From Perkinsus olseni (Eukaryota), in NCBI GenBank assembly GCA_013115125.1, contig JABANN010000248.1, positions 1 through 47,505 on the forward strand: a DNA stretch of 47,505 nucleotides, in the 5' to 3' direction. This document shows positions 870 to 45,600 of the stretch, piece after piece. Position numbers and translations under genes: made by a program. Below the pieces are notes generated by a model, which was given only the letters and a program-made list of their open reading frames with translations, had not been told where the DNA came from and ran no database searches. Each line of letters begins with the position of its first letter. Position 1 is the stretch's first letter.

Positions 870-2154
870 TTAGTCCTCCTCCATCTGTGCCTCCTCTTCC
901 TCTTCAATAGACTTCTTGGCACGTTCTTGGAGTTGATGGATCTCCGCTTGGGGAATCTGCCCGCCCGAAGGAGATAAACAATGAGATACCGAATTAATAT
1001 TTTTACCATTTTATGCGACTTTCCGGTGGCATCGCACAACACAGCCATCTCCAACTCCAAGTCCTTGTCCTGAAAAAAACGTGTGCCCCGACCTATTGTG
1101 TATCTTCCACGGTTGAACAGAAGATTCTCTCACCTTCTCGTCGTGGCACTTTTGGATTATCTTAGCTGCGCTGAACTTCGCTTCCTCGCAGGTCAGATTC
1201 ACATAAGGCACGGCTGCGTCGGTTGGCAGAAGTTTCTCAATTTCAGTGCGCCCGGCCTGACGACCCTTCCCTGATAAATACGAGGATGTTGAAGGCTGCG
1301 GTAAACGAAATAAAAGATACTCGTACCCACAGCGATCCCCTTGAACTTGATAGCAGTTCCACTGGGGTCGATGCCGTAGAGTTGAGGCCCCTCAACTTCA
1401 TCGTAAACGCCCAGGAGGACTGTGCTGCCGAATGGTCGAACTGAACAAAATGAACTCTCCTGCGATTTGAACCCTAGACCTCCTGTACGACACATTGACC
1501 CTCTAACCCGTTCCGCTATTACCACTCCAGTAAAGCGTGTACATGTGCATGAACATAGCTACGCGATCCGCCAGCACCGGTCCAGGGATGGGAGTAGAAT
1601 ATACTTGCTTGTACTGAGAGCACTCCTCCCGAGCTGAAACAATAAACACATGCCGCATCGACCGAGCCGACTAATTTCAAAGAGCGTTTTGGATTGAACG
1701 ATTTTCCCCGCACACTTCAGAATGAATTTCGCTTCCAAAAATAAAACGACGATGAGTATAATCATCATGACTACCTCTCTCAACGATCTGCTTAGCATCG
1801 GCAACAAGCCCAGAGATGGCCAGAGTGGCGTGACGATCCACTGGGAATATCCTCTTGTTGGTACCCGGCACCAACATCTTCGATAGAAGAAATTTCTCGT
1901 TGGCGAAGACGATCTGAACGGGAAGGGGGAATTGCGGTATACAATAGCGATGGAATTTATTACTCCGTCCTTGCAGCACAGAGCGAGGGCAGTGCCGCCG
2001 TTATCAACTGCCTTCTGAGCGTACTCGATCTAAGACAAACATGTGTTAGCCCGTTCTGTATCCTGCATGCTTCGAGCTAAGATACCTGGAAGACCCTTCC
2101 ATCAGGGGAGTACGTCGTAGCCGAGAGATCGTATCCAGAGCCTGTTCCCGACAT
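870..2154 (-). CDS. PSMA3: 20S proteasome subunit alpha type-3 (alpha7), multi-exon
   Basis: Exons read MSGTGSGYDLSATTYSPDGRVFQ, KMLVPGTNKRIFPVDRH...GLVADAKQIVER, VRPFGSTVLLG...GPQLYGIDPSG and ELEMAVLC, ending in the acidic tail AKKSIEEEEEAQMEED* (TAA at 870-872). Confidence 0.95.
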
Positions 2155-12312: not shown

Positions 12313-15300
12313 ATGCGTCTTTTTTCTCTTCTACTGGTCTGTACGGCTATCCAGCCATCACAAGCCTTCATAGAGGATATTCTCAACCAAGCGTTCGGAG
12401 GCGCTGGCGGAGGGGGAGGGGGAGGCTTCCAATTTCAATTTGGTGGTAGTAATTAGCATCAACGGGCTCTCGAGGGGCTATGGGCGAACGTTGATAGGGG
12501 CGGCGAGCGCCGTAGATTCCACCGGATTGTTTGAGGATCATCGTTGATCGAAGTATATATTCGCGTCGCTCCGCTGTAATTAGGTGGAGGTTTTCATCAG
12601 CCGCAACAACCTCGGTACAAGCCGGTTAAGTTCCCTAAGGGGGTGACTTCGAAGATACACAAATCGATGGAGTGGATGAAAGGAACGGAGTGGATGTGGA
12701 ACGAGTGAGTCGAATAGTTTTCACCCATTTTTGCAATTCCGTTCTGACCAGTCCCAAGCCGATCGTAAGGTGAGGACTCGAGCGTCTATAGGTCGTTATA
12801 GGTTTAAGAAATTCTATAAACGGGACCAGTTCGTGCAACTCACAAATCCAAATTTTTAGCATGTTTTCTGTGTAAACTTTTATCCAACCCCACGATGGAG
12901 CGCACATCTGCAACGATGAGCTAAGATACTCTTTTTCTCGGCTGTGCGTCACAGTCATCCAACCGACCCTTCCACCGTGCTGTGAGCTACTCTGTGTCAA
13001 GTTCTATGGCTAGGGTGTGGGTCTGCTCATGAATCGGTTTCGCCAGCGGTGGCGTTGGTACGGCGATCGCTCTCACGTCCGAATGCCTGTCTGGTCGTTA
13101 CTGGTATTCGGTCGGTGATGTTTCAGTTGGGAGAAGGTTCGCTTCCAGTCGGATGGGATTTTTGTGGCCCCGACTGAGGAGTGCCATCAGCCCCAGGCTA
13201 AACAATGTAAATGGAGCGCTGATAAAGACGGGAATATTTATATAATGTGGGGGAAGTAAGTTACGGATGGAGTGGTATGGAAGCTTCAATAAACGGCGAA
13301 TGATCCTGTCTGTGCCCAATCTGATTTGATCGGAAAGTGCAATAGTTGAGGCGGAGAATTTAAACGAGGCATTTGTTACGAAGCGATTAGTTAATACCAT
13401 AACATTCGTAAATTATTGGTTTCTATCGGAGCTGGTTTCCCGCAGGAAGTCTGGGCTACACGAGGTGAAGGCTGATCACATGCCAGACGTGAATGATGAT
13501 GATTTCGAGTTGGAGTTGCCCAATGTACGGAGTGCGCGCATGGCTTAACGATAGGGCCTGTTGTTCGGCATTCGAGAGGTCCTTGGTTCAATCCCCGGCC
13601 CCTCCACTTTCAGATCTCCTTGAGCGGAAAGAGGAAGCGAGACGGTGCTCCCCTTCATGCAGAGTTCGTCCAGGTTTTCGATACAGAAATACAGGATGCC
13701 CGGAGAGATCTGTAGGACCGTTTTCTTTCATAATCGATCGAGATGGCGCGCGCTACTTGCACTCTCTCTAAGATACGGAGATCTAGGCTTGGAGCCGGGG
13801 GCAGATGTGAGTACGGTGAAGAAAGCGTTCAGGAAAATGTCTATTAAATATCACCCGGACAAGACCGGAAATGGTGAGTGTCGGATGCGGGGATCGAACC
13901 GGGGTCGTCATCGGGGAGAGCGCGTCGGTTGCAGATCCGACAGCACATCGCAAATTCACGCGGATAGGAGAGGCTAATGAGATATTATCGGATCCGGTAG
14001 TATCCAAATCGATCATCGGGGCGCGCGCGATCGTTCTGCATCTGCAGGCCAAGAAATTCCTATACGACATGGGAGGCATGGAGTCAGTGAGAGCCATGGA
14101 GAAGGGGGACATACCGCGAGGCGAAGATGGTCATGTCACCTACCCAGTACCGCTGGAGAAGCTGTAAGGGTCTTCAAGAAGTACGTTGAGGAATTGCGAG
14201 AGAGCAAGATTTTCAGGTATACTGGTTCTAAGGAGCATGTGAGGATCAATCGTCGTGTGGTCTGCACTGGATGCCGACAAAAACCGGATCTCGAGAAGTG
14301 CCGAGGGTGCGGGAAGTGCCCGGATGAGGTTAAGATGGTCCAACAGCAGGTGGGTGGATATCTAAGGGTATCTTCAAATCTTCGCTGTGCGTAAATTGGA
14401 TGAGAGTCACGATGTGTGGATCAGGTCGGGCCTGGGTTCTTCGTTCAACAACAGCAACAAGTGCCGAGTCGGGAGAGATGCAAAAATGAGGATACTGAGC
14501 TCGACCTCAACATCGAGAAGGGGATGATGGATGGCGAGCAGGTGGGGGAGGATACTCCGTATGAATCACAGGGAATGGAGGTTGTTATTACCCTCTGTGG
14601 TTTGGCAGTATTTTTCGTCATTTTGGCGTTCTCTGAGTGGTCGTTGTATTCGGTAGGATGGCCTGTGGACTCTCTCGAAATCACACAGTAAAGCTGGATG
14701 GTGGAGGGTTCTTGCTCGGTATTATGTGCCGCATGCTTCAGTCAATTTCTCAATCACCCCATTAGCACGCACGAGTGCTTCCATTTTGCGTGACAAGTTC
14801 GAGCGACAAATTTGAATTGAAATATCTTTCTCGTGCTTTCAGGTTGTTTTCGAGGGAATGGCTGAACAGCGTCCAGGACAGATCCCCGGTAATTTAATAT
14901 TTACCATCAAACAGACCAGCGACCAGAGGTTCATGCGAGAGAACGGATACGATTTGCGGACGGCAACGCAGATACCCCTGAAAGAAGCCCTTCTGGGCTT
15001 TGACAGGTCCATGGCCCACTTAGACGGCCATCAGGTGACGCAACGGATTCAGTGGTTCGCAAAGATGAGTTTCCTAGGTGCGCTTGGTGAAGCAGCCGGG
15101 TGAGGTCTGTCAACCTTTTGAGGTTATGAAGATCCCTGGGGAGGGGATGCCCCATAAAGTGGAGGGCGGCGGCCATAGTGACTACGGAGACTTATATGTA
15201 ACGCCGCTTCGCTCCGCTCTGTTTTTGGTGATCATGGTGGATTCTATCAGGTTAAGATGAATGTTAAATTCCCGGAGTCGTTGACGGATGCACAACGAGA

Positions 15301-20529: not shown

Positions 20530-23500
20530 TCATAAGAAGAAATTGACACCTTGCAATTTGTCAGTCAGTCCGTCCTCCTGAAAGCAAACAATAGAGCAAC
20601 TTCAATCGAGCGTCGTGCTCACCTGCAGGAGGGCATTCGCCGCCTCGACCGTCCGAGCATCTTGATTCGCTTCCAAGTAGCAATCAACTCGCTTGGCCAA
20701 CGCCTGAGGGATGATGACTCCATTCAGCCGTGAGATGCTCACTGACCTCAGCATAGACCAGAGGTGCCGGCCTGCTGGTGGTCCGAGTGCATCGTGCGCT
20801 GAGGTGACACAGACACCACACGATCTGCTGCAACTCCTCAGCCCGTAGGCTTGGATCGGTGTAGTTGTCATCATGCAGGCACATGTAATGCGTGGGCCTC
20901 GCCGTACCAGTGTGGCACTGACAACAGGGAGGAGTCACCAACACGAACGACAAGGTCGAGGCCTACCTGCTGAGACACTAAATAGAAATTGAGGATGTTC
21001 GGTTGTGTGACTGTCCCATCGACAATAGTGCCGGCTGGAACGTTGCCCGTCTTCCGATCGCAATCCTGCGGCTTCTCGCACCATAAGGTGAGGTTCTGTG
21101 AGGAACCGGAGGACACCGACAAGAGGGTCAGAGTCGGCCTGAACAAGAGGCAGATGAGATTGGAAGGGGAAGACTCCGAGCACTTACGAGTATTTCTCCC
21201 TGGCCAGGCGGTCTCGCATCTTTTCGGAGCATCTACCGAAGGCCCCTGACTTCAACAGGATGGCCTGGGTCACTCGGTCGCTGATGGCATGCGATATATC
21301 CCGGAACTCCGCCGGCTGGAGCGTCAGGAACTAACAACAGTGTCGGATAGGTGTTCGTCGACGCTAAGCGAAGCTTACTCGTCCACTGGGGAAGGCATTG
21401 CGGAAGGCGAGGATGCGCTGCGGCAAGCGGGAGTTGATGATGTAGAAACGCTCGAGCAGACGGAAGACGAGGCTCTCGATGTCGATGATGCGCGTGCCAG
21501 TGTCCTGGACCGACGAGGCTGTGGCGTAGAGATTAACCTGAGACAGGCGAGCATGACAACGGAATGGAGAGGTGGGGCCTTACGTCGTTGTCTACACTGC
21601 CGACTGCAGTGGCGATCCAGAGGCCACCAACTGCTTCGCTCCGCTCAAGTGTGAATGCAATTACCATGCAACCCCTGGGAACCAACGATCGTTCCTCACC
21701 TCCGCCGCCGCCGCCCCGACCGTTGGGTATCGCGAAAAGACTGAAAACAGGACAGCCGGTAAGCTCAGACTGAAATTTTAGAAAATTTCTGGCAGTCTGG
21801 CAGTGCGAGGGCCTCAGAACAGCCAGCACTGACTAATCCCCGGAGGCGGGTTTGCCCACCTCGTTTGCTGCGTCATCCTCGGCACCCCAGCGATAACACC
21901 ACCGTGTGGAGGCACTCGGCCAGCGGGCGTCCTCGGCAGAAGACCAGTAAGGCTGGTCGGGGTGGGAGGGGGTGTATCTCCGTCGATATCTAAAACAACA
22001 CTCAGTCGATCACACGATTAAAGTCGGTTACCTTCATCCGGGCTCTCCACCTGGGGCTCCTTCAGACATATTTTACAGCAAAGTTCACACATGATACTTT
22101 GCCATTGATTGATGGTCCTCTGACTAGACGGACAGACTATCACCTGAGACGACAACGATGCCCGACTCCAACGTGCCGGCCAGCGGTCTACCTGACTAGG
22201 GACGCCGGCGATGCGGTCCACCAAGTCCTTCACTACGCAGTAGGGCCGCCTACTTTTTCTCGGCAGAAAAACAAGGAGTATCTGACACGCTACCCATTTC
22301 ATATCCACGCGAGCAACGACACTGACCGCGGGGCCCGCGTCCGCTAGCTGTCTTTGGCACCAATCCCTCAACCGTTGGACATCTTCCCCATCGACCAACG
22401 CTGAGCTGCTCAACTTCAGTTCAACTCGCTGAAGACGCGGAGACATCCGGGGCCACTACCATCAGAAAACTCACCGGCTCGTCTTGGAACTTGAGGCCAT
22501 GACCATCGGCAATCGTACGAAGAGCCTCACAGAAGGTGGACACTCCTCGACAATCTCCGACCTCCAACACGCCATACGGTATCGTATACTTCGCACAACG
22601 CTTGAACTGCTGCCCAGTGATAACCCAGGAGCCTTGGGAGCATGGCATCTACAGTACGAGATGAAGAACACCGCGCTCGCCCTGGTGATCGATTTGGAAC
22701 CCACCGGCTTCTGCTTATCTCTGTATTCTAAGGTGATCTCCGGCAGTACCCTGCCTTTGACGGCGAGAGGGCGACGCTGAACGTCAATCTAAAAGTCAAG
22801 CCCGAGGGCTACGGCAAAGCTGCCACGACACGTATCTCACTTCCAAGTCGGGCTTTAACATGTTAACATGCTCAGAGGCCCCTGAGGGTGGACGACCTTG
22901 TTGTTGCTGTTGTCTCCCTCGTGGCAGCATCGGAAGGGATGACGCCAGACGCCTGGTAGCAGGATTCACGCTGTGCTGCTGCTGATGCTGCTGCTAGGGG
23001 GCACTCACTCTCTCAACAACCACACAGACGATAGAGATGCCTTCGGGGCCTCGGCGGTCGTGGCTGTCAATGGCTTCACGCTAAGGAGTTGATCGGCTTC
23101 TACTCGGCACAGCTGAAGGGAGGTCGAAGGACCCATACCCGAGTGTAGGATATTCACACAGCGCCATCAACGGCTCCGCCCAGTGCTCACTTCAATAGGG
23201 ATAACCCGGCCCTTCCAGTCCTCAGCCACGACTAAACCCCCTTCCTCATCATCCTGTTGTTGTAACGTGCAGGTCCAGTCCTTCTTCCCTTCGAGCTTGT
23301 ATGTCTCATAATATTCCCTCAACGTCATCTCTCGTCCATCAACAGCAAGCCTGTCGGAGCACCGCCGTAGCCGTAGTATGGTGTAATACAACTTCTTCCC
23401 GGTGTGCTCGCAGTTCACGACCAAACCGTGCGGCGGCCGCCCCGGCCCAGAGACCCTCTTTTTCCCATGGACAACCCTCACCTCCGTACTGAGAAAAAAA

Positions 23501-25264: not shown

Positions 25265-26338
<1,074 letters not shown>

Positions 26339-26659: not shown

Positions 26660-29600
26660 ATGACGACGAGCGACGCCGGTCCCCCTACGAGTGCCGCGGC
26701 CTCGGCAGAAATGGCTAAGAAGAGTTCGGGCGCTCGTAAGACGAATCTTGGCTGTGCGTGAGTATCTTCGAGTATCCTTAGTCCGACTTCGATACGAAGT
26801 TGTATACGTATCTTCTGAAGACGGTAAGAGCATGCTTCAACCTCGGATACTCTTATCAATACAGGAGCTCATCCCGCCAGTGAACTGGTGGTCCCCGAGA
26901 CGACGGGAGTTGGTATGACCAGTGGCCAAGGTTGGATATCCAAAAGATTCCCTACCTACCCACAGGTTAACCTGTCTTATACCATGATGCAATGATGGTA
27001 TCTTTTTAGATACTCATACTTGAGCTGGAACGTCGTAGTATCATCAACCAGATGCAATTCCTCAGTCATCAAAGCGCGATATCGACGAAGTTGGAACTGG
27101 TAGTAACGGAGTGGGCAGCAGCAGGCGCCAGGGTCGAACCCCTTCAGTATGTGTCCGTGGAGGGGCCTCAGACGCCCTACGACCCCGTCCAGGATCCCGA
27201 TGGTTGTGATTTTATACAGTCCATACCCTTCAGAAGGTTGGGGTATCTTTCTCTAGACTCTAACGAGAAGAGTAATCGGGAATTCTGTGTTAAGCACGCT
27301 TCAACCTCGGATATCAGGTCAATGGTTGGCTCGGGAATTGAAGTCTGTCTTCGTTGACTGCGAGGCAAGATTCATCCAAATCAAATTACACAAATGTCAC
27401 GTTAACACCCTCAACCTCCAGTCGCAAGTTGTAGTAGATGATGATTCATTATGTTGCTTTTGAAGGCCGTCCCTTCAGGGCCTTATCGCGGTCAATATTC
27501 TCGGCAATTATCTTGACCCACCACCACCGCCGCCACCCGTTTTGCCCTCTGAGGATGCCAGTAGTTGGTTCGTGTGCATGCGTGCAATACCACACCATTC
27601 GCAGTTCCTCCACCAATGGTGGCCGTCCCTGTCCTACACAGTGCGGATGCCGAACCCGGGGCGCATCAGAATTCCGGCTGGCCTCCCTTGGCGGTATGGA
27701 CGGCGTGCCAAGACACTCGGTGAAAGGATATACGGCCTCTTTAGGGACCCGAAGGCCTCGGGTTCGATTCTATGGGCGAGCATTTTGGCTTGGAAGTTCC
27801 CCCAGCTGTGTACCATCCCCAACCTTCAACTGGGGACTTCTCCCCCCTAGGGCCCGAGGGTATCTTCGGGACCGAGGCTGACCCGGAAACGCAAAAGCAA
27901 ATCGATCAGCTGCTGTCATTAAAGCAGCGGGCTGTGGAGGTTATATTGTCGTCGCCGGGATTCGAACCCGCGACCTCTATCGCCGCAGGTGGAGGACTAC
28001 GACGAGGCGATGCGACTGAAAGATGAGATAACCCGGTTGCAGGGAGTATCTCGGGCGTTGGCTGAGCTGGAGCGGAGTAAACGTATCGCTGTACAGGAAG
28101 AGGACTATCCCCGGGCCAAGGCATTGAAGGAGGAGATACACCGCCTCAGGTCTGCTCACCATCGCAGAACCCTCTACCACAGTGTAACACTCAGGACCAA
28201 CGGGGCCGCGGCCCAGCCGCCTCCTCGGCAATCACAGACTGTGTATGAGCCTCGGTACCAGTACTACCATCAGCATGGCGGACATTCGTTCCAAACTCCC
28301 TTGTCGGGGGTCTCTGGCCGTACCACCCCAATGGGGTTCAGTGGGGCTGATGGTACTACGGGCCTGATGGAACCCACGATCCTTCCTCCATCATCAGCAT
28401 ACAACGGGAGCAGCAGCAGCAGCAGCCGGCCAGTGAACACACATGATGAGATGCCGGCCGTCGCAGGTCAGCCTGTCGTGACTGGCATGGGTTGAAGTAT
28501 CCTTCAGGTGGCGGTGGGAGTAGTCAGCACAGATCCATCCTAGAGGCCGGACCAAACTCCCTTCCGGTACTTTCCTTCTTCTTCCGTGTCCGATCTCGAG
28601 TCCTCAGTCGGAGTACCTCGGCCAAGATCCCTATTATGCCGTAGCAACAGCCAACACAACGCCACCAACAGCAGCAGCTCCGATAGAGACGGGAGGCACG
28701 CCCAAGACCCCACCCTTGGGAGGGGACCGGGGACCCCATCCGGACCTGCCCGACGTCCCCAACTCCGAGGCCTTGCCGGCTGCGGGTAGGGGAGGATCTG
28801 GGAGGGCCCGTGGTCAATGGTGGCTTCAGAAATACTCCCCCCAGCGGTGGCCCATGAGGCCCAAGGGGCTCCAATGACCCTGTTGGGTGAGTATATAATT
28901 CGGTGTATAGTCAGCAAGGTGAGTTACGAATGGAGTGGTATGATAATAATTAGCACACATGCGCCCGCAGGATTGGAGAGTTCGCGAGGCGGGGTTCATC
29001 CAGGCCGAGCATGACCTCGAGAAGGGCGTGTGGGCTGATAAAGGGGACGCCGTCTCGGGCGCCCACGCTGCCATCTATGCCGTCCGAAAATGTGTAACTG
29101 ATAAAATTGCAAATGTAGGCCCTTCTCCTCCCCATCCCTGCCGTTACGCTCAGCTCTGTAGGTCTTCTTGCCATGCATGAGGCTCCTCCAAGCCGCAGCC
29201 AACAGTGTCTTTAACGTGGTGGCCACACCCATCTGAAGGGAGGCTCCCTAGCCCTCCCCTCAGATGGTATCGTCGATGCCCCGCGGCTCCCGTGACCTCC
29301 ACGCCATCCTCGAGCCCCTCATGCCAGCCCTCACCGATCGGCTGTCGGACCCCAACAAGCGCTGCCAGGAGGCCACACGGAATGCTATCCTCGCCATTGC
29401 CGTCAATGTTGGCCCTTCCTTCGCCACCCATCATGTACTCGGCAGCACCACTGAAGGGAAGGGGAGCGACTTTGGTAGGTATTGAAGATAACCTCCCGTC
29501 GGGGGGCGGGTGGGAGGGCTGCTGCGGCGCCGTCCCTCCTGCCCAACAAGGCCTTGTCGGCTCGCTGTGACGTCCTGCAAGCTGTGATTGACACCTGTGG

Positions 29601-30641: not shown

Positions 30642-31070
30642 TGATGATAACTGAATTAGTGGGGGGGGAGGCTGCCGCCATCATTTCATTCCATCCATGC
30701 CGAGTTGTGTTCGTCAGTGGGAGAAAATCATTGGAGCTGCAAGGAACAAACCCCAGCCGTAGCGATGGGAACGGCGAAGTGTTTCTTGGCTCTCATGCCG
30801 TCACACCGACGAATAGATTACCGCGCACGAATGAGCTTGTGAAGCCTCCACAGCGGCGACGACGACGACGACGACGACGGCTCGGACGGATCCGCGGTGC
30901 AGTTGACACGACCAGACGCTCATTCATACGCGAAGGGGATTGCCCGTTGTGGCAGCGTTCGGGCAGCCAACTGAATAACGCAACACAGGCTTCATCGTTA
31001 ACTTGCTACCACATCGGCATCGAGTCTAACCAAGCCGGCGACGGCTTTGGACTTTAAACTGACACACTCG

Positions 31071-31295
31071 TGAGATGCATGCTTCAACCTAAGATACGGC
31101 TGCTGCAGCAGCAGCAGCAGCACCTCAACAAGTTGCCCTCCCAGCCCATCAGCAAAGCACCTCGCCAGACTCATCGTGGAGGTACGAAGGAGGAGCTCAT
31201 GCAGCATCTTCCGAGTCGGGTCCGAGTCCGACCAGTTGTCATCGAGGCTCTCTGCCAATATACCCGACTGATGAGCGAAGGGAATCAAGAATGAT
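31071..31295 (-). pseudogene. Orphan duplicated copy of one DNAAF5 exon plus flanking intron sequence
   Basis: Close, co-oriented match to 35260-35477 (SGILAESLDDNWSDSDPTRKMLHELL vs SGILAEGLDDYWSDSDPTRRMLHELL). Confidence 0.75.
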
Positions 31296-33430: not shown

Positions 33431-33447
33431 CCGGCGGTCCGCTACTA

Positions 33448-33697
33448 CAGGGTGCCGACTTAAAAAGGGCAGACCCCTCATGAATTGTCCGTGCGGACGA
33501 GTTGAGAGTTGTAACGCACACCAATCGAAAGCTCTCGTCGAGCTCTACGCAACCCCGTTCTCAGCGTCGTCTCACTCGAATTGCCCATGGAAGGGCACGC
33601 CGCTGTGAAGAATGATCGACGCTTGAGGAAGTCGACGGAGGGCATTTCTGTGACTCGGCGGTGATGAGGGGTCTGCCCTTTTTAAGTCGGCACCCTG
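33448..33697. mobile_element. 250-bp MITE of the Tc1/mariner superfamily
   Basis: Perfect 34-bp terminal inverted repeats CAGGGTGCCGACTTAAAAAGGGCAGACCCCTCAT (33448-33481 and 33664-33697), flanked by TA on both sides. No transposase ORF. Confidence 0.92.
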
Positions 33698-33924
33698 TAG
33701 TTACGACTAGGTAAAACCGCTGGTGCGAGGCCTTGAGACTGTTTAACGCGGGATCTCTCGGAGCCGAGTTGGTGAGACCAAGACGACAAGAAAGCCTTCG
33801 GTGCTCAGAGTTCGGTGCCGCACGTTAACGGATTTATGATCGTCCTCGACGGTTCCTCGTACCCCATACTTCCCAACCCAACAACACGTTACGGTCATCG
33901 AGACGGAAGCACAAAACATGGCGG

Positions 33925-36900
33925 TCACGATGATGATGATAGTCCCCTATTGAGGAGGGAGAGGCAGAGGTCAGGTTGGAGCGAGTTGGCTGCTGCTGTA
34001 TCAACCTCCGCTTCGAATGCACTCCCGCCGGCTGCCGACGCCTGACGACCATCAACACTCTGCCTTGCCCGTCTAGCCGTTACTGCCCACCTCCCTCAAT
34101 GCAGCATACACGGCCTTGGACAGCTGCATGTTGCTGTCGTCCAAATGCACGAACAGAGCTCGGACGATGTAACCTGAGGAGCCCTAGGGCTGCTACAGCA
34201 GCAACCGAGAGGCCCCTACCGAAGACGCTGTTGGACAGGGCCTTCATCGTCCCAGGCCGGCTGCTGAGGACCTCCATCAGCACCTCTAACGCTCGGCACG
34301 CCAAAATCCTGAAAAATCAATATTCCCCACGACAAGAGCACAACCCTCCGCAGACCTTATCTCATCAACACTATCATCGAGGCGCTTGAGCAGGTCTGGG
34401 TAGCACTCCCGAAGGACCTCCGCGTCGAACTCGTCCAACTGCTGGTCATCGGCCATCTTCCCAAAAATGTCGATGATGATGACGGTGGTGGCCAAGTGAC
34501 GATTGTCCGGCGTGAAGGCGTCGTCCAGGCTGCTCCTCAGCAGAGGAATCTGCCAACGCCTCCACGACCAAGGGGACGGAATAGGACGGGCCGTACCAGC
34601 TCTTCCAATATCGACCTCATCCAGTTGGCTTGGACAGCGGGTAAGGTCGTGTGGAGGGCCAACAGCGAGGCCTTCCTTATTCTGGTATTAGCCTAGAGAG
34701 GGTTACTCCGAGGAGGGTATCAGGGGAGATGGCAGAGTAGAGACGATGCTATCAATGGAACCAGCGGCCGAAGAAGCGGGAAGCATCGTGGGGATGAATT
34801 CAATGCGAAGTGGGGCAGAATACACACTGTGACACTATGCAAATGGCAGCAGCCCTGATCATCACACAAGGGCAACCCGCCCACCTGGCCGGGCCGCCAG
34901 ATCAAGTTCGGTAGGAGAACCCCTGTGACGAGACTAACAGCAGGAGGACTTGCCCTCGGCAGATCGACGGTAGTTGATACACCTAAGAAGCAAGACTACG
35001 ACCCGGGCACAGATCAGTCGTCCTACAGCCGATAGTCAAGTGGTGTGGCTCGGTGTCCGGGGGTGTCTGAGAAGCCTTCTTCAAGGCCTCTAGTAGGGGC
35101 CTGAGGGAGGGACTTTGACGGGTGCCGGCCGCCCTACTCACCCTCCTCCCTCCTCGGATGCTCTCCTCGCTACGTCATAGACGCTCTCGATGACGTCCAC
35201 ACGACAGCTGGGGGTACAGCGTTCAGGGTCGGATTGGAAACAGAGCATCTAATGTTGCATGAGATGCATGCTTCAACCTAAGATACGCCTGCAACAGTAC
35301 CTCAATAAGCTGCCCTCCCAGAGCATCACCAAAGCACCTCGCCAGACTCATCGTGGAGGTACGACGGAGGAGCTCATGCAGCATCCTCCGAGTCGGGTCC
35401 GAGTCCGACCAATAATCATCGAGGCCCTCTGCCAATATTCCCGACTGATGATGAGAGAAGGGAATCAACATTGATGAGATGTTCAGCTTGCCGCCTCACC
35501 AACTGTACGTCAAAGTACATGTCATAGACGGCGGCCGGCGACGTCCCTTCCCGGGCAGCCAGCAGAGCGATGCAGTCTCCCACCTGACCAGACGGGTATG
35601 TCGGCGCTCCCACAGGCGAGAAGGACCTCAGGGGAGTCCGAGGACGAGGCCACACACTGCAGCAGCAGACCGAAGAGGCGAGTGACCAAGGTGTCGGACA
35701 GCCCTGAGGATACACTGCTGCTGCTGTTGTTGCCCCCTTGACGAGTGCTGACCACCTCCCTTCAGCTGGAGCATCGCCTTCAGCACACGAGGTACGATTG
35801 TGATGGTATCGGAGGAGACGGTGAGCGCAGCGTGGATGACGTCGAGAGCGGTGGAGAGGACGTCCGTGGTGATGCTACGGCCGGCGTGGACTTCAATAGC
35901 ATCACCCAACAGCAGGAGGAGGTCCTGCCGACAGAACAGCGACAACAACCACGCAATAGACGACCGAGTCGTTCTGCGGCACGTCCAAGATGAGGAAACA
36001 GATAACGAAAGACTATTGTCTTCATCTATATCGATTTATTGGTACTCAGAGCGCTCCAGTAGCACCCACTGGTCGACCATGGGTGAACCCACCTCAGCCC
36101 CGGCCCGGGAAGTGATTCTGTAGTTATTGGTGGTCCTGGCAGCCCCCACCACTCGCGTCGTCACGCGCCCCAGGTTCTCTTCATTCCAGTAGTCGCCATC
36201 GCCTGAGCGATGATCAACAAGAGTTGGGCAAGTTGTGGTATTAGAATGTCCACGCACTGGCAGGGGCATCAGGAGTATCATCAACTGTACAGCCCAAATG
36301 CTTAGCCATAATATTAACTATGACCCCAAATGCATTGACGCCGGCACGATCCACGATAACGCCGAGCAGGGTGCCTGAACGACCACGATGGTCGGCACCT
36401 CCATGGCAACCAAGATGGTGATGATACAGTCCAGACGAGTGGTGAGGGGCAGCTCTCGGGAGGAGTAGAATGATAGAGTTATGACGAGCGTCCGGTCATC
36501 GTGAGGGGTTTGCAGACGAGCACGTTTTCAGTATATTCATCAGTCTAAACCTCCGATAAGACGAGACAAAGTGACGGCTTTGTAATGGTAGAGCTCAGAT
36601 TCTCTTCAGCCACATGCCGCTGACCTACGGCAGGCCTTGGTAACCCTCGCCTCAGCGTCAACATCATCATCTCTGATGGCCCGGTAGATGTGGATGATGA
36701 GCTCTTCGATAAACGGCATAGCCTTTCGGGTATCCGCCATCAGCATTACAGCCTGGGAGAGGTACCGGGTTCGATCCCCAGGGACGGCATTTTTCCAACT
36801 CACTGTGCACATCCTGATGATTTGCTCTCTGACACCGGTGGAGGCAGTCCATTCCACCATACCATTCAACGCGAAGCGAAGCAATGGTTCTGTGAAAATT

Positions 36901-39423
36901 GTCACGTACCTGAGGTTAAAGCATGCAAGATGCAAATCAGGTCAAGTTTGAGCTTGCGCGTCGCACCATCGGGATTCATCCGACTGGCACGCCTCTTCCT
37001 GCGTCCCTTCAACAGACCCAAACCTAGCCAACTCCGGCACCCTGCTCGGACAAGGGGGGACCTCCAGAAAATCCCCAAGCAGAACTCCTCCCTCTTTCGG
37101 GAACCCTCCCGAAAGGTCTTCCGTCGCTTCACGCTTACACAGGGCCGCCTTCCGGAGTGCATCCAAAGCACGAGTCGACACTAAAACGAACAGTGGAATG
37201 CCGCCGTTCGCGTGGGTCGATGATAACTAACCCAGATCAAACTGGTACCGTATATCAACAGGAAGATTATCCGGGTCCCATGGGCCAAGGCGATGCCTTC
37301 ATTCGTGATCACTTGCTTTTACTCTACAACTACAACTACCCCAATGGGATTACGTCGCCCACTATCGCAATGCTGCTACGTACGACGATCCGCAGCAGCA
37401 GCAGCAGAAGGCCTGTGTGTCATCACGCCCTCCGATGATGTGCGAGCCGACCTCTCACCTTTGTCATCTCCCACCATGACCATGAGTTGGCTCAAGACTC
37501 GACCCTCCCAATCCGGCATTAGCGTGGAAATCATCTCTCGAGCGGCCTCCTTCGAGGAAGCATCTTCCTCGTCCAGCGTAGTGGCCGCTGCCTTCAGACT
37601 GAACAGGTTCGAAGATTCTTCGCTGTGCGCAAGATACGCCCTACTTCTGACCATCCAACTTCGCTCCGCTAACCAAAATCCCCTCCAAAAAATCAACAAC
37701 GGTTGCTCGGACCTAAAAGGCCTCCTCAGCGTTGAGGAAATGCAAGATTGCAAGATACCTTCTCGTTTCTGTCCCTCACTAGACCATCATCAGCAGCCGC
37801 GCCCCCTATCGCGGCGATGATCTCCTCAGCGTGAGCGAAAAACAACAACTGGGGTACTGGCGGACCCGCCGAGATCAAACAGTCTGGCCCTGAGCACGCA
37901 TATCTTTGCGCACAGCAAAGATTCTTAGAATAAGCAAGAGCACCTCTCTTAAGCTTGAATGTTGCACGCATCAACATAAGATTCCTAATAGCCATCAGGG
38001 TTCGTTGACGGACCTGCCGGAGGACCTCAGCCCTCCCTCCCTCCCCCCTTGCCCACCCTCCACTGCTGATGTCGGGTATTCCGCACCAACGCCGCGACGA
38101 GGGTCTCTCGGGCGGCCGAGCAGCTCAGTACCTCAGTAAGCATGGACGACGCTCGAGCAGTATCAACGTTCGCTCTTCTGTCGCCTACCTTGTCTCCCTG
38201 TAGGGTCTCCGCCATCACTCCCACAAGGTCGCATGCCTCTTTCTTGACATCAGGACAGGTATCTTGCATTGCCATACCACACGTTTCGATAATCTAAGAG
38301 AATTCCGACTACGATTCCGCTAGCCCGCGATCTAGACAGCAGGAAGCGACGCAAGCGAACGACCTCCACAGACAGAGGAGGTCAACGTCCGGAGGGGGGG
38401 GCAAGAAAACAACAATCTCTTGAGCCCCAAGCGATTGCGAGATCCACTTGGAAGTCCCCTAGTCTGGCCACCACGCGACTCCACGTAGCACGCAAAGCAA
38501 GATCGCGGAACTAAGTTGGTCGGAACACTGCAGACTTCCCCGCACGAGGAATGTCGATCGACAATTACCGAGTTCAGGAGCACTACCGAGACTGAAATTA
38601 TCGGGTAAAGAGTCAGGACCCAGAAGCGTTCTTGAAACTCAGGGAAGGCATGAGTCTACCGCTCGTCCAGATAGATCCTCACGTCGTTCGAACTCTTGCT
38701 GATCTCCTGTCCACCAGACGAGCGTCGCAGCAACGCCCTGAGCAGGCCGATGAGCTGACATCGAAGCTCCTCGCAAGACTCCTGGCCACCCCTGATGCGA
38801 CTACAGATGGCTGCGATGAGGACCTGACCAACGACCAAGAGGAGGAGGAGGAGGAGGAGGAGGAGGAGGAGGAGGGGGCTGAGGTCATTCGACAAGTCCA
38901 TCAAGGAACGCTGATTGTTATCAGGAATCTTAGGTTGATGCGTGCAACATTCAAGTTCAAAAGATATGCTGTGTGCGAGATACTACCGAGGAAGTTTCGT
39001 CGATCGTCTCCGACTTCAAAAAATTAATAAAATTCATCATCACCTCGATGGCAGAAATCCGGACCTACGGGAAGGCATAACGATCGGGGGAAAGATACTC
39101 CGCAATCGCGACCTCGTGGACAAAGTGCAAGGGTCAACCTAAGATTCCAAACAACCCACCTTCTCCACTGGGTCAGCGAACAGTCTAGCAACAGGTTTGT
39201 GAAGATCCTCATAATACAGTCTCGACAGAGCCGCCAGCGCGTCTTCACTTGCTGGTGCAACGAGGCGTATCTTTCTCTCATGCTTGCACATCATACGTAA
39301 GGTTGCCTCCACCTCCCTCTGGATGCTTAAGATTCCTTGCAGCCGGAGCCGCCTGTCGGGGTCCGCAAGGCAATTGATGCTCCTCCTGAGACTTTGCGAT
39401 AGACTTTCGTATGATAGCGCCAT
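33925..39423 (-). CDS. DNAAF5: Dynein axonemal assembly factor 5 (HEATR2)-like HEAT-repeat protein, multi-exon
   Basis: LRRSINCLADPDRRLR, RLFADPVEK, ESCEELR, DTCPDVKKEAC, RNTRHQQWRV and YPDLLKRLDDSVDEIR. The last exon ends NRGLSSSS* (33925-33927). Confidence 0.82.
36757..36794 (+). repeat. Representative isolated tRNA 3'-fragment (T-arm/B-box) in an intron
   Basis: GAGAGGTACCGGGTTCGATCCCCAGGGACGGCATTTTT, with no D-arm or anticodon arm upstream. About 11 similar copies occur in the window. Confidence 0.75.
37941..38968. repeat. Pair of 76-bp inverted repeats in two DNAAF5 introns (37941-38016 and 38893-38968)
   Basis: Manual ungapped alignment gives 13 mismatches in 76 nt. Each copy contains the 28-bp element. 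Confidence 0.85.
38839..38874. repeat. (GAG)12 microsatellite
   Basis: Directly visible. On the minus strand it forms the pyrimidine tract before a DNAAF5 acceptor. Confidence 0.9.
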
Positions 39424-40188
39424 GATGATGAAGGGGAAAATCTGCTTCGCTCCGCTAAGAGGTCCTTCGAAGCACCAATTGTAAACCTTTGAATCGATCA
39501 TTGAATTGAGGAGAATTTCACATCAGTAAAGATAAACTAGAGAATCGATACTGAGTTTCAGAATGGCATGGGGGGAGGGCAAGAATCATTACCGAGAGCA
39601 ATGATGGGGACTAAAGTACCCGGCAGACGGAGGCGTATCTTAGGTTGACCCGTGCATAAGACGAAGAAGAGGTGGAATCTTATAATCGATACACTAGCGC
39701 GTTAACTCACAACAGCTTTTTGATGATTATGTCGAGATGATATATAAAATCTCGCCACGTTTCCAAGGTTGACTATGGTTGGATACAGAATAACTCGCAG
39801 TGCGTGGGTTGAGAGAAAATGATATTCATACTGACACTCGGTGCATCCTACTCAGGATCAACTTGCCCGATCAAAGTCACCGGAGCGACCGCATCCTCAG
39901 AGTATTGATAACATCATCACACAACAGTGAGGGTCCGAAACTGATGTATGTTGATGGGGCTTTAATTAGGTTACATTCCACCGGCCGTGACAGCGTCGGG
40001 AGGAGGAGGGGCCATGCGGGTATCGATTGCTGATGTGGCATTCTGAACAACAACGACAACAGCGGTAGTATCCAAGGTTGAAGCGTGCAGGATACACAAT
40101 ATCTCTGCGTGATGGGATATTTCGCACTACCCCAGACCTGTGCGAGGGTCAACAAGCCAGTTAGAGCTAGCGAGTCGAAGCTACTCAT

Positions 40189-43100
40189 TCACACGCCGTT
40201 TTCAACGGCGACGGTAATCAACGGCAGTGGAATCGTCCCTACCTCCGCCGAGGGTTGTTGGTTCATGAAACCACCGGTAATGTAGTCATCCTTCTCCGCC
40301 GCTCGGTATCTGAATACAACAACAGCACTAATTTCGTGGCGCGTGACGCTGGCTTCTATGTGTACTCGGCCGAAAGCTGAGCCACAGTCTCTCGGGCATG
40401 GTCGAACTCCTCCAAGTCATCAGCGAATATCGGTTCCTACAGAGGGAGCAGATCTTTCAATCGAACGACCCCGGGTCGATCCCCGCACCTGACGATATTG
40501 TTCAAGGAAAGCTCCACGACTCCTTAATTTGTCGTACTGCTTCAGGCACCTGATGATAAGAGTAATACCAGAAATTCCGGAACTCATCAAAGCCGGATAA
40601 AGATACGTCGATGGTATCTTCGATACGTGTGAGTAGCTCAATAATCTCAGGCAAGATCAAGAATAAGATTAGGCGGCGTATCTTAGGTCGATTATGGCCA
40701 AACAAAGAATATCTTTGGCTACGAGGCGCACACTGGAAGAGGTGATGAATGCCCGAGGCGAAGCAGCCTAGCTCTGACGTGTGGTTCCTTGAGAGGTCCC
40801 CGGTTCGATTCCCAGTGACGACACCTATCGAATAATGTATTAATGGAGGTATGGTTGGCCAGCATCAGTCCAGAGACTTTATGAGCATGTTGAACATAAG
40901 GGGACTGCCTCGCCAACGCCACTTGTATGCTTGCCGGACCCCATCTGATAAATAAAAATACCGCTACCGGGGATGGAACCTGCGACCTATCTACTGTATG
41001 AATCTTGCCAGTCTCCTTTCTCTAATACGCTGCAAGCTCTTATGAACCGACGCCGGGTCAACTTCACCCTAGAGAAACCAGAATCGATCACGTGATCGAT
41101 TATATCGATCAGCTAACCTGTATAATATTCAGAACAGATATATAGGCCCCCCTTCTTGTCGACGCGCTGACCATAAGATTCTTCTGCTGCAACAATCTGA
41201 AAAATGCATCAAAAATAAGCGGAGCGAAGCAGATGAGATGCCCCCTCCTCCCACCGTCTCATGACGTCCATGACTGTAGTCTTGCGGACTGTCGAGTGTG
41301 CTTGATGGACGATCGAGGTATTAGCGGTTAAAGGGGTGTAACTAAATGTGTAAAAATACCCCGACTAGGGATCGAACCTGCGCCTGTCGATAGGGAGCAT
41401 ACAATGCATACTGAGTGATGGGAGAGTAATTCCTCCTTATCACTCACAGGACTATATACTGGACCGAAGGAGGGGCGGAAAATGCGGAGATGCCACCGCT
41501 GGGGATCGAACCAGGGACCTCCGGATGCTTACCCTGTCATTAAAAAGTGGCATCTTGGCGTAGGAATCAGACTGGCCACGATTGACACCATATCGTTGTT
41601 CATATAGCCAGGGTATCTGAAGTTCAAGCTTGCAAGATACAAAGAAGGTCAAGGCTGTGCCTTAGTGTGGTAGTGCTCGCTGACATCACGGTTGATACCA
41701 GTTGGTTCGTCTGCGCGAAACTCGGGGTGGCTGAAAGAAAGATTCGCCATAATCCCCAGGACAAAAACCTACGGAGAATCTCGAAATTTATTTCATGCAT
41801 GGATCGACCTAAGATACGGTTCATCAGCCATAATGAAGAGTGGGTAGGAGGGGCAGTATGCAGGGACACTAACGATATCGGGATTTTCCCCAGCAACTCC
41901 CTAGGAGCAATACTGAGCTACTTCCCTGGTGAGAAAGCTGCCAGTGAAGACAACGACTCCTGGCGACTTCCTAGAGTGGGTACAGCAGAACTGTGGCGCT
42001 GATCGACTTAAAATTATAATCACCCAAAAATGAGTGCCCGCTTAGTTACTCAATTTCAGCCGATCAGCGGCGATACGATTGAGGGCTGTGTTATCCAGCA
42101 CCACCACTGCATCAGCATTCAATGCCAACCTGACCAGGACTAAATCTGAGCATACCGCTCCTTTCGTAACTCCCAACCTCTTCAGCGTCAACACTGAGTT
42201 GTAAGGCTGCACGACTACATCCGAAGTCTCGGTGAGCATCGGGAAGACGCTGTAAGTTTGCAGCAGCTTCTTCGGGTATCGATCGGAGAGGGTCTCTAAC
42301 AGGTAGCTCCCCATGCCCGATCCAGTACCTAAAAGATACCATCATCCAAAATCTTCGCGCTGCGGAAAATGATTCTCCGTCCCTAACGCTCATACTTCCA
42401 CTTTCATACTGGATAGCGGATGACCAACCGACCAAACAACTTCCCAGCGTTGAGGAAATGCAAGATTGCAAGATTTTCCCCCACACCTACCCCCTGCAAT
42501 GGAATGCAGCAGCATGAAGCCTTCAAGCGAGTCGCTGCCGTCCGCCTCGCGATCGATCATCTCACAGATCTCCTCCTGGACGGCCTCCGCCTGGGAATAC
42601 CCCTTCGCCCAATTGTTACCTCAACAACACTAATACACCGCCTCAAACCAACAAATCGATCATCCGGGCGCGCGCTACCTGCTCCACCGCCTTCCTTGGA
42701 CATGTAGATATTTTCTGGGTTATAAAGGTTCTTAAATTCGGAGGTTTGTATTTGATTTATCACCCTCGGCTCCAAATCGATCAGCAAGGCTCTAAGCAAG
42801 AGAACGTAGCCACCGACCCTCCCCACAGACCGGCGGCGAGAAGGGAAGAGATCGCACTACTGATGGCAGAATGACTAGGCCCAATTCCACGTCACCGAAA
42901 GAAATATCGCTTAAGTTAGTATTACTGAGTGTGGAAGAATCTTTTTTTGATACTGGCAGTATGTATGTTACTAACATAGTATCATAAAGATCATAACTAG
43001 TGTATGCCAATGATGTGCTAAGATATTATCGCTCACATGTTGAACAAAATTCGTAAAAAACGATGAAAAGCGGTGAAATTTTTCCCTGTTTCCTGGCGAA

Positions 43101-43701
43101 GATTCCTGGCCTGGTCCGGTCCGGAGCTGATACTAACAACGACCTCATGGTGGGAGGGGCAAGCAACAAGAGTGGTTTTAACATACGGCAGTTACCACCA
43201 CGGGACGAAACAAATTGCGTAAGTTTTGGTACGCACTTTTGGACCAGAGGAGATGAGCACGGCAGAGTAAACAGAGAAGAGGGATACAACATGCTTAGGA
43301 GTGACAGAGTCCTTCACTCTAATGACAGCGAAAATATTACTGCCTACACAGTCTGAACAGTGAACCGTGTAATAATACCGGTCCCAGGATTCGAACCGGG
43401 GACCTCCTTACCTGGGTATGTAATGCTCGTCATCGGCTTGGTAGAAGAATACATCTTTACGGTCCTCGGCTGGGGGCTGATTGGGAGGAGGCGGTCTCAG
43501 AATACCATCGGGGTCGATACCTGGTGAATGTATCTTAGGTCGACCCGTGAAAGATACGAAATAGGTCTCTTCCGAGCAGTCTCAACATCTTGAATACGAT
43601 ACACATCCCCTACCGTGTTCAGCACACAACTGCTGCCAAAATTCGCTGCCGACTTGATTGCCGCATTGTCCAACTTGAAGAGTGACAATCTCACGAGGCA
43701 T
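40189..43701 (-). CDS. TUBG1: Gamma-tubulin, highly intron-rich
   Basis: [98 protein letters not shown] and [11 protein letters not shown]. The exact 3' end is uncertain. Confidence 0.95.
43530..43557 (+). repeat. Representative copy of the dispersed 28-bp GTATCTT-N14-AAGATAC element
   Basis: GTATCTTAGGTCGACCCGTGAAAGATAC. Other 28-nt copies start at 2058, 2215, 24842, 36906, 38925, 39759, 40068, 41613, 43698 and 43883. Confidence 0.85.
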
Positions 43702-43947
43702 CTTCAAGTTGAGCTGGCAAGATACAAAAAAGGTTATCTCATGGCCCATCGTAACAACTCAAGATCGGTCATCAATTCCCGGGTAGTAATACGTAAAAAT
43801 GGTGCAACAGGGAGAATCCCCCGAGTTTGAAAACAATGTGACGTAAAACGTCCGGCTAATCTCAGCCTTCAACCCTCCCAAAGATACCAAGCTTGGACCA
43901 TGCAAGATACGAAATAGGTTAACTCTCGCTACTTCCAGTGAGAATGA

Positions 43948-45600
43948 TCAATCATCCGGGAATGTTGGCTCGATCTCGCTGTCATCCTCACTGTCCTCGT
44001 AGCTCTCATCAGTCGGAGTGTTCACCCTCCGACGTTTGCTCAGTCTTGGAGACACCCTCCGTTCGACCACCCCCTCCCCCTCCCCCTCCTCTTCTTTCAT
44101 CTCATCGTCATCATCATCATCAGCCTCCTCGGAATGCATCGAGGGAGTGGCCGCCTGCGTCGGGTCATCTGCTGCCGCCTGGCTCGATTGGCTGCCGTGT
44201 TTCGGTGGCAGTATGTCCGTTTGGAGCCTGGCCGCGTAGGTTGTGCAGTACGATACCTACAAAAGAGAAACGATACAGTACGACGAGATCGAACCCACAA
44301 CCACAGGCATGGAAACCGAGAGGCCCACCACTACACCATTCGATCCGATACTCACCATATCTCTATCCGAAATCGACTTCGGCTCACATGGTACCAACAT
44401 GAGCCGATCCAGCGCCACCGGCGGAGACTCTCCCCAGGCCAGCCTCCTGAACCTCCTCCCCACGCGCCTGCGCCGAAAATGATCCATTTCTCATAGTTGT
44501 ATTATTACTCTCTTGCAACTGGCCTGGTGTCACCACCCATCACCACTCGTGGTTGTTGCTGTTGAAGTCGTTCGGGTTCCTTCACCACATGATTCTCACC
44601 TGCATGGCCGTCCTCCAATCGTCACCTCCCCTTCCCTACTACCTCCCAATCCGATACTACGCCCCTTGGCCTGGATGGTAGCGGGGCTGCTAACCACGTT
44701 GACCGGATGCTGTTGGGATTGGGTGTTGAGCAATCCACTCTTGAAGGCAGCTCGCTTGGTCATTATCGCCCTCACCACCACCGCCATGGGCAAGTTGAGC
44801 CGCGTAGCGAGGGTGATGATATCCCTTTCGGGAGGCATCCCGTCTGAAGGCCATCATCCACTACGGTCCTTTCGGCGTACCCCTACCATGCAAGTGCTTC
44901 ACAACGTAACCGTTCAGAGCGCTCTCTGCTTCTGGCAGCAGACCGCAGGACAGGGCCGATAGTGGCGTGTCGAACAAAGCAGACCGCCCAAACAGCTGCT
45001 GCTGCTGCTGTTGGCTGGGAGGGTAGGGTGGGGGTTGAACAGGCATGGACGGCGTGAGAAGCCCCACTCCTGACGATGATAGTGGCCAGCCACCGCCAGC
45101 AGCCCCTTCCCAGTATTACCAATTTGCTGAGGCGTTCTCACAAGAGGGGGAGGGGGAGGAGGAGGTTGAGGTGGTTCGGAGACCACATGATTCATCACGG
45201 GCCCCGGTGGCTTCAGCGGTTGTGATTCTCTCACGTCACCACTCTGCTGCTGTTGTTGTCCCATCGACAGGAGATGCCCCACAACAGCGTCAGTGGTGAG
45301 ACCAGTTGCCTTGCTCAGTACCGAACAGTCCTGATAAACCACTTTGAAACACCATTCGGAACCCCTCCTCCCAACCTGCTCCGTCGGGACCGGACAATCC
45401 TTGTGAAATTGTAACCATTTGCTAAGCACGAGGTTGGCGTGAGCGGAAATCGCCTGAAAGCTGTAGTGAGTTCAAAGGCTGGCAGGCTGCTGCTACTACT
45501 ACCGGCAGGCCAGTAGGAGTCCCCGGGCTCCGGTCCCTGGGCACAGATGACATCATAAAAATGATACACCACCAAAAATAATACGCAAGAGTGTGACACG
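43948..45600 (-). CDS. Hypothetical multi-exon protein with Q/P-rich segments and an acidic C-terminus
   Basis: Minus-strand ORF blocks (LSKWLQFHKDCPVP, PERDIITLATRLNLP, DHFRRRRVGRRFRR, EEADDDDDDEMKEEEG) with GT/AG borders. Confidence 0.5.

Follow-up and report, generated by a model that had tools for sequence, protein, structure and literature searches.

Why do the introns of a single gene hold several families of short, recurring motifs, many of them set directly against splice sites? The gamma-tubulin gene of Perkinsus olseni raises this question. It lies on the minus strand of contig JABANN010000248.1 (assembly GCA_013115125.1), which we analysed over positions 1 to 47,505 (the window). 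A first reading made from the letters alone, here the sequence-only reading, had listed such motifs in the interval 40189..43910 and proposed that introns of this lineage may be built from, or colonised by, a small vocabulary of protein-binding cassettes, which could amount to a system of intron generation or chromatin marking. The motifs are best explained as copies of at least three very short dispersed repeat families in the non-coding DNA of this Perkinsus genome. That these cassettes are repeat-derived introns, comparable to the introners of other protists, is the explanation that we favour, with a confidence that stops a little short of an even chance.

Three main families were defined at fixed criteria, giving 42 hits: 15 sites with a tRNA-like B-box, 21 copies of an element of 28–40 nucleotides (nt) called el28, and 6 copies of GCGCGCGCC-N5-GATCGATT, the ATCGAT/GCGCGC element. 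Word counts were compared with those in dinucleotide-preserving shuffles of the window. The 28-bp core of el28 was matched 12 times for 0.00 expected, exact B-box words 8 times for 0.08, GCGCGCGCC-N5-GATCGATT 6 times for 0.16 and the heptamer AAGATAC 41 times for 4.33, and GCTTCGCTCCGCT was found at 7 sites with at most one mismatch, for 0.08 expected. Profile searches with nhmmer gave 22 el28 and 13 B-box matches in the window and zero in five shuffled windows. As these searches gained just 2 further el28 copies and 1 further B-box piece, the families in their present definition close at 22 and 13 members in the window; gapped variants exist beyond them. All motifs named in the sequence-only reading were present where it had placed them, far above shuffle expectation: six B-box pieces (40473, 40802, 40970, 41368, 41502 and 43387), 28-bp elements (41613, 43530, 43698 and 43883, plus 40678 and 41790), the ATCGAT/GCGCGC motif (42654–42675), GCTTCGCTCCGCT in intron 9 (41254–41197; word at 41218..41230, minus strand) and a 27-mer (42446–42472). 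Two had been misclassified: the 27-mer is a variant of the el28 family and not a separate motif, and GCTTCGCTCCGCT is not specific to introns, its copy at 21633 sitting in a homology-backed exon of a Piwi-like gene.

The hits avoid coding sequence. In a set of 8438 nt of evidence-backed exons, we found one of the 42 for 7.5 expected (p = 0.003), a B-box-like word at 27750–27770 inside an RNA-supported exon of CEP104; the other 41 lie outside. The intronless GAPDH gene (25268–26338) and a Cys-repeat open reading frame (ORF; 18722–20296), both described by the sequence-only reading as free of the motifs, indeed lack the heptamer as well as any hit of the three main families. The proposed vocabulary is real, depleted from exons and shared among unrelated genes, but it is not specific to introns: 6 of the 21 el28 copies lie in evidence-backed introns, and several of the 15 others are intergenic or in untranslated regions (UTRs). 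Cassette copies occur on both strands and also in intergenic and UTR DNA, as expected of dispersed repeats.

Introns of unrelated genes have these cassettes in common far more often than chance allows. Among 47 evidence-backed introns, 14 pairs scored at least 18, against a mean of 0.1 in 10 shuffles keeping the splice-site hexamers, and 20 scored at least 16, against 0.9. In introns of at least 90 nt, five of eight hits lie no more than 16 nt from a junction (simulated p = 0.013). For comparison we used 29 introns mapped regardless of motifs: 7 of CEP104 and 7 of the gene upstream of tubulin, both from RNA, and 15 of the Piwi-like gene, from homology. A hit is present in 9 of the 14 tubulin introns and in 3 of these 29 (Fisher p = 5e-4). 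The interval 40189–43910 holds 13 of the 42 family hits, for 3.3 expected (p = 1e-5), and the heptamer AAGATAC occurs 8 times in the 2076 nt of tubulin introns and 0 times in the 1544 nt of the other 29.

The gamma-tubulin gene runs from an ATG at 43701 to a stop at 40189, with 15 coding exons and 14 introns for 478 residues. The model was obtained by tblastn with Perkinsus and other gamma-tubulins, splice refinement and translation, with Pfam Tubulin and Tubulin_C matches on ORFs. Exons 1–8 are at 43701-43614, 43520-43412, 42791-42679, 42619-42491, 42328-42178, 42129-42050, 41730-41661 and 41616-41533, and exons 9–15 at 41341-41255, 41196-41118, 41068-40995, 40944-40825, 40549-40489, 40436-40366 and 40309-40189. 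The closest named relatives of the tubulin exon are the gamma-tubulins of P. olseni and P. chesapeaki, and the exon translations are the same or almost the same as P. olseni partial proteins. Intron 4 (42490–42329) is joined in an RNA contig. Intron 7 (41660–41617, 44 nt) has the sole non-GT donor among the 28 introns first collected; the conserved translation is restored only with this intron removed, and it is therefore read as GC-AG. Introns 1 to 14 measure 93, 620, 59, 162, 48, 319, 44, 191, 58, 49, 50, 275, 52 and 56 nt. Their mean of 148 nt compares with 41–51 nt for typical introns of the window, which are GT..AG introns of that size in 13 of the 14 short RNA joints listed, the remaining one measuring 99 nt. 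In the accessible parts of two studies, Perkinsus introns are given as 39–1622 nt, most below 100 (PMC9399869, PMC3101222). The interval of the sequence-only reading starts where the tubulin coding sequence ends and stops within the 3′ UTR of the upstream gene, whose RNA contigs are uninterrupted from about 43777 to 44060.

Some further features of the gene were recorded. Intron 2 (42792–43411), more than ten times the usual length at 620 nt, has an AT-rich centre in which, as in the rest of this intron, Rfam recognised no RNA family. Intron 10 (41069..41117, minus strand, 49 nt), read directly from the sequence, contains three ATCGAT words. Introns in phases 0/1/2 number 2/4/8 in gamma-tubulin (40189–43701) and 10/1/2 in the Piwi-like gene (22282–24750). 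The public protein models of Perkinsus gamma-tubulin and of the proteasome subunit (P0006-P0011, P0122) translate straight through introns or merge adjacent genes; P0011 unites tubulin with the genes on either side of it.

Whole introns are homologous in unrelated genes. The ATCGAT/GCGCGC element has the form GTAGCGCGCGCC-N5-GATCGATTTGG. DnaJ intron B (13997..14047, plus strand, 51 nt; J-domain reading) belongs to this family, and its alignment with a Piwi-like intron (22649..22704, minus strand, 56 nt) shows 41 of 50 columns identical (82%). The match begins 3 nt ahead of the donor and nearly reaches the acceptor; the two genes are unrelated and lie on opposite strands. The inverted element forms both donors (GTAGTATCC.. 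in DnaJ intron B and GTGGGTTCC.. in the Piwi-like intron). Tubulin intron 3 (42678–42620) has the same core inverted, likewise at the donor: in its GCGCGCGCC-N5-GATCGATT motif (42654..42675, minus strand), GTAGCGCGCGCC forms the donor (GTAGCG). The GTAGCGCGCGCC and GTAGTATCC ends of the element thus both serve as donors. Elsewhere, two ATCGATTAGAATGGCGMGCGCT.. copies at 2428–2458 and 26360–26390 agree at 27 of 31 aligned bases; they occupy the divergent promoter regions of proteasome/kinase and GAPDH/CEP104.

The second family, el28, has the form ACCT-N5-GTATCTTGCAYGCTTCAACCTAAGATAC with 7-nt ends that are inverted in the consensus and is present in 21–22 copies in the window. Its core GCAYGCTTCAACCTAAGATAC is conserved, the left arm GTATCTT less so, with ACCT-N5 upstream. 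Sense copies sit at intron 3′ ends and antisense copies at 5′ ends. In tubulin, a sense copy fills intron 7 (41613..41652, minus strand): the AG of the element serves as acceptor, and its final 4 nt (ATAC) already belong to the coding exon. The AG is also the acceptor at the exon opening the DnaJ J-domain. Another sense copy lies 9–13 nt before the acceptor of intron 1 (43613–43521; copy at 43530..43569, minus strand), a partial one is internal to intron 12 (40678..40717, minus strand), and an antisense one is internal to intron 6 (42049–41731; copy at 41778..41817, plus strand). Intron 4 contains the 27-mer variant (42440..42474, minus strand), in which ATCTTGCA is doubled; it is 94% identical to 37722–37756, which fills a predicted 46-nt intron starting GTATCTTGCA, and its word is also found in other contigs (loose ends 42445 and 42475 in run X1). 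In the proteasome alpha-3 gene, one exon of which matches P. olseni at 100% and P. marinus at 90% identity, the donor GTATCT of intron 1 (2030..2085, minus strand, 56 nt) is the end of an antisense el28, and the resulting join GRVFQ/IEYAQKAV is confirmed by P. marinus and Polarella proteins. A further intron of this gene (1070..1133, minus strand, 64 nt) has an antisense copy 6 nt past its donor.

Three copies flank the tubulin coding sequence, all on the minus strand. In one (43698..43737), the AG abuts the tubulin start codon (..TTGAAG/ATG). A sense copy about 180 nt upstream of the ATG (43883..43922) is part of the upstream gene's 3′ UTR and stays unspliced in the contigs covering 43777–44060. 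The last is found about 95 nt past the stop (40068..40107), just outside the interval of the sequence-only reading. Larger structures also include the element: an inverted repeat of 109 nt with 81% identity and 814 nt between its arms (37939–38047, 38862–38970) carries in each arm an el28 with variant ends GAAT..ATTC, and a segment of about 210 nt that occurs twice at about 90% identity (31070–31274, 35259–35451) starts exactly at an el28, the frame being open from the AG in both copies.

The consensus ends of el28, GTATCTT and AAGATAC, are complementary, as in a miniature inverted-repeat transposable element (MITE), and 70.7% of cells pair, no better than the 69.0% in shuffled columns (90 of 500 shuffles reach the observed value). 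A covarying RNA hairpin was rejected, with 3 two-sided changes for 2.4 in shuffles and a covariation score of 0.128 against 0.122. A relic of the spliced leader was rejected as well: the window contains 0 matches to the 22-nt Perkinsus leader at up to 3 mismatches, and comparison of the el28 consensus with the leader or with leader-intron primers did not exceed shuffles (best 197 of 5000, one of six tests).

Pieces of the third family share some 35–40 nt that read like the 3′ end of a tRNA: a variable-loop-like (G)AGGTC, CCYGG, the B-box/T-loop TTCGATY, CCCAG, a 7-nt acceptor-like strand, a discriminator A and often an oligo-T run. Of 13 pieces, 11 have the discriminator A, and in 4 of 13 at least four T follow it directly. 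Nine pieces lie in evidence-backed introns. Five are sense, three of them 6–12 nt past the donor and two 15–17 nt before the acceptor, where the T-run reads as the pyrimidine tract. The four antisense pieces all start within 7 nt of the donor, its GT lying within or just past the reversed acceptor-like strand.

Most of these can be followed in tubulin. Sense pieces (minus strand) lie 6 nt past the donor of intron 2 (43411–42792; piece at 43374..43409) and 12 nt past that of intron 8 (41532–41342; piece at 41489..41524). A partial protein model of P. olseni runs through the latter and is identical to it over 16 translated residues. Intron 8 has a second sense piece, followed by TTTTT, 15 nt from its acceptor (41355..41387), and the 50 nt of intron 11 (40945..40994, minus strand) amount to GTAGAT, one B-box piece, a T-run and ATCAG (TTTTTATTTATCAG). 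Antisense pieces (plus strand) occur at the donors of intron 12 (40824–40550; piece at 40789..40825), where the GT is inside the acceptor-like end, and of intron 13 (40488–40437; piece at 40462..40495), the last being related to the piece at a DnaJ intron donor. DnaJ intron A (13874..13934, plus strand, 61 nt) consists of GTGAGT and then an antisense piece, and an RNA-supported CEP104 intron (27940..27988, plus strand, 49 nt) is filled by another. The 99-nt, RNA-supported intron of the upstream gene (44257..44355, minus strand) contains A-box-like and B-box-like words in tRNA order. A source of the missing 5′ acceptor strand for an intron 8 piece in a tubulin exon was considered and dropped as chance, the only match being a single 7-nt complement.

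Taken together, these observations define several one-cassette introns (tubulin 11, 13, 7 and 3, CEP104 27940–27988, DnaJ A and B) and several introns with splice sites inside cassette ends (proteasome intron 1, tubulin introns 3, 7, 12 and 13). From them we infer the insertional origin of the cassettes, the direction of causality between cassette and intron, and the descent of the B-box family from tRNA genes. The cassettes would create or remodel introns in the manner of introners. Copies inserted in coding sequence would survive only where they are spliced out, and would for that reason be found against junctions. One end of the cassette would supply the donor (GTATCT, GTAGCG, or a GT in the reversed acceptor-like strand), the acceptor (CTAAG/) or, through a T-run, the pyrimidine tract. 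Typical introns measuring 41–51 nt, one copy would make up about one intron, and the long introns of tubulin may consist of a junction cassette plus further inserted DNA. A bolder version, which we hold possible and yet doubtful, is that Perkinsus has ultra-short introner-like families (28–60 nt) making introns in either orientation, one of them from tRNA 3′ halves with the RNA polymerase III (Pol III) terminator as pyrimidine tract, and that gamma-tubulin, where 12 of the 14 introns are not in phase 0 and most can still be recognised as cassettes, has been caught soon after a burst of gain.

Each family recalls known systems in part. tRNA-derived short interspersed elements (SINEs) and 5′-truncated tRNA retropseudogenes are scattered in either orientation; they include a B-box, an acceptor-like strand and a T-run, and their 5′ part is missing. 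The B-box pieces show these traits but differ from SINEs in having no poly-A or other tail, no flanking duplications detected by eye, no full-length master in the window and acceptor-like strands that vary among pieces; to our knowledge, placement at splice junctions is not a SINE trait. Isolated B-boxes away from tRNA genes are also found at the extra TFIIIC (ETC) and chromosome-organising-clamp sites of yeast. Those sites are intergenic and few, whereas the pieces described here are intronic, have acceptor- and terminator-like parts and are frequent (13–15 in 47.5 kb). el28, as TTCAACCTAAG/, resembles the fused branch-point/3′ splice-site motif of Giardia and Trichomonas, which has at least 12 nt and ends in AG. 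That motif is present in nearly all introns of those organisms, in contrast to el28, found in a minority of introns and also intergenic and antisense.

The introners known so far measure a hundred bases or more and were found through whole-intron similarity; those of Micromonas and Aureococcus use a transposon mechanism. As far as the accessible parts of PMC7789003 and PMC9860276 describe them, the introners of Micromonas, Aureococcus and dinoflagellates including Amoebophrya are, like the present cassettes, repeats that constitute whole introns in unrelated genes (family sizes here being small). Further traits in common are action in either orientation, a splice site in the ends and, as far as the el28 consensus goes, short inverted ends, and Perkinsus is itself a marine alveolate related to introner-bearing lineages. 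Set against those same descriptions, the cassettes are much shorter (28–60 nt), fall into several unrelated small families with many copies outside introns, show no target-site duplication at el28, are old and diverged (about 60–90% identity) and include one family that looks like a tRNA 3′ end. Fungal introner-like elements, in the accessible part of PMC3609843, are near-identical intron families decaying into ordinary introns, a likeness to what is seen here; they exceed regular introns in length and are predicted to fold stably, whereas the cassettes have normal intron size and the stem that was tested lacks covariation.

Several results weigh against a repeat-derived, introner-like origin. 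All evidence comes from a single 47.5-kb window, a narrow base, and 4 of the 47 introns (proteasome, DnaJ) were chosen for holding motifs, so that the junction-position and intron-pair figures are somewhat inflated. In the comparison set, 26 of 29 introns have no hit at all. The sequence-only reading had presented the tubulin locus as a hotspot, and this is borne out by the number of hits in the interval and by the share of introns concerned, but not by pooled density: hits per intron base are not significantly higher than in other introns (p = 0.19), because tubulin introns are much longer. Target-site duplications were sought at 20 el28 copies with four boundary offsets, and at most 1 of 20 showed one of at least 3 nt, random places giving 0.5 per 20. 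No transposase or reverse transcriptase was found in the Pfam scan of window ORFs. In the available portion of a 2022 introner screen table, which does not include the header, three Perkinsus genomes have zeros in the apparent introner column (PMC9860276). Finally, G36, A37, T38 and C40 at the right end of el28 are kept in at least 90% of copies while the left arm varies, an uneven conservation that looks like selection on a site rather than neutral decay, and sense copies lie upstream of the starts of tubulin (0 nt), proteasome (about 65 nt) and CEP104 (about 160 nt), which fits a signal as well as a repeat.

These last points lead to the alternatives, which together with the origin that we favour are not mutually exclusive where regulation or splice signals are concerned. 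The families might be cis-regulatory motifs, sites for transcription factors or TFIIIC, which a compact genome confines to introns, UTRs and spacers, their closeness to splice sites being a by-product of 45-nt introns. This would account for the tight ATCGAT/GCGCGC pair (27/31 bases) in the divergent promoters of proteasome/kinase and GAPDH/CEP104, for the el28 sense copies upstream of several genes and the stronger conservation of the right half, for the roughly 10-fold enrichment of the heptamer AAGATAC/GTATCTT even as a solitary word, and for the clustering of copies at the proteasome, DnaJ, GAPDH-CEP104 and tubulin loci with none in the Piwi-like gene. The motifs may also resemble DRE/E2F-type words, AP2-type GCATGC sites and B-box ETC sites. 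We nevertheless consider this account, one of two serious rivals, rather unlikely. Pieces still hug the junction in long introns (191–620 nt), which a binding site does not need; the homology of DnaJ intron B and the Piwi-like intron spans the whole intron, beyond the core; B-box pieces carry acceptor-like strands and T-runs for which a TFIIIC site has no use; and splice sites are found inside element ends in both orientations.

A narrower alternative treats el28 as an RNA-processing signal, a module of branch point and 3′ splice site (TTCAAC..CTAAG/) serving cis-splicing and spliced-leader trans-splicing, and not as a mobile repeat. Trans-splicing of a 21–22-nt leader in Perkinsus is reported in the accessible parts of PMC9399869 and PMC3101222. 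The AG of el28 is the acceptor in tubulin intron 7, at the exon opening the DnaJ J-domain and in a predicted intron (36910–36966), the donor side of which falls where an RNA contig piece ends. The same AG directly precedes the tubulin ATG, and frames are open from it at 31070 and 35259. But the element is absent from all 14 RNA-supported introns outside tubulin, its copy in the 3′ UTR of the upstream gene is unspliced, GG replaces AG in the copies at 26823, 27287 and 40068, and antisense copies act as donors or lie idle. Its 24 nt from GT to AG are also shorter than any intron seen in the window, and its stem is without covariation. We regard a processing signal, the other serious rival, as improbable. 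Still less probable, to the point of being a marginal explanation, is a functional role for the B-box pieces as Pol III units or tRNA-like RNAs housed in introns, whether nested tRNA genes, tRNA halves or processing handles. The excess of exact B-box words, the discriminator A and T-run counts, the tRNA order of words in the 99-nt intron and the 16 residues of the intron 8 piece preserved in another P. olseni record speak for it. Nonetheless, tRNA genes had to be rejected: ARAGORN called 0 tRNAs at default and with -ps, and Rfam gave no tRNA match at gathering score or at E up to 10 (run on the window and on 4.1 kb). In 13 of 13 pieces, moreover, only 3–4 of the 5 positions of the T-arm stem pair, the 5′ halves are missing, and among the 9 pieces of evidence-backed introns 4 have the orientation opposite to the host gene. 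With -ps80, ARAGORN made 33 scattered calls; some fell on B-box sites but the majority did not, which is uninformative.

The origin of new spliceosomal introns is a long-standing question. If organisms with 45-nt introns gain them from cassettes of 30–50 nt, such cassettes would escape screens for whole-intron similarity, and a genome apparently scored as introner-free would hold an overlooked source of intron gain. It would also link tRNA-gene fragments to introns, a connection on which our searches found no paper. If the families are regulatory or splice signals instead, they would be the first candidate cis-element vocabulary found in our searches for Perkinsus, a parasite of shellfish for which genetic tools are scarce. 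Our literature searches returned no description of these Perkinsus motifs, of Perkinsus introners or of Perkinsus tRNA-like introns, and the P. olseni/P. chesapeaki genome paper did not surface in them. A metagenome scan with the 21-nt core gave one match, on an AT-rich contig unlike the window, which we read as chance.

The window is eukaryotic and gene-dense. A Pfam scan of 290 stop-to-stop ORFs matched a proteasome subunit, kinase, ankyrin repeats, Ras, DnaJ, a JmjC-type cupin, Piwi, GAPDH, CEP104 and tubulin; a PDB search with two Piwi-like ORFs gave nothing useful. For the Piwi-like gene, 15 of 16 intron proposals were retained and one (21953–22067, score 15) was discarded. Our own ab initio gene finder recovered 21–22 of the 28 known introns, and it fused some genes or put them in the wrong place, as on the strand opposite GAPDH. 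Several element contexts rest on these imperfect predictions and are marked as predicted; the predicted introns 27272–27317, 36910–36966, 37599–37644 and 37713–37758 were labelled so and excluded from statistics.

Three features of the window outside the cassette families were also observed. The minus-strand ORF at 18722–20296 encodes 525 residues with six diverged 102-nt repeats and no Pfam match. A perfect inverted repeat of 38 nt with 182 nt between its arms (33444–33701) looks like a MITE or a structured RNA; it shows no clear flanking duplication by eye and is very deeply covered in run X1 (bin depth 117, one contig 770). Opposite the intronless GAPDH gene, itself on the minus strand, an open frame of 362 residues (25235–26338) is preferred by our own gene finder.

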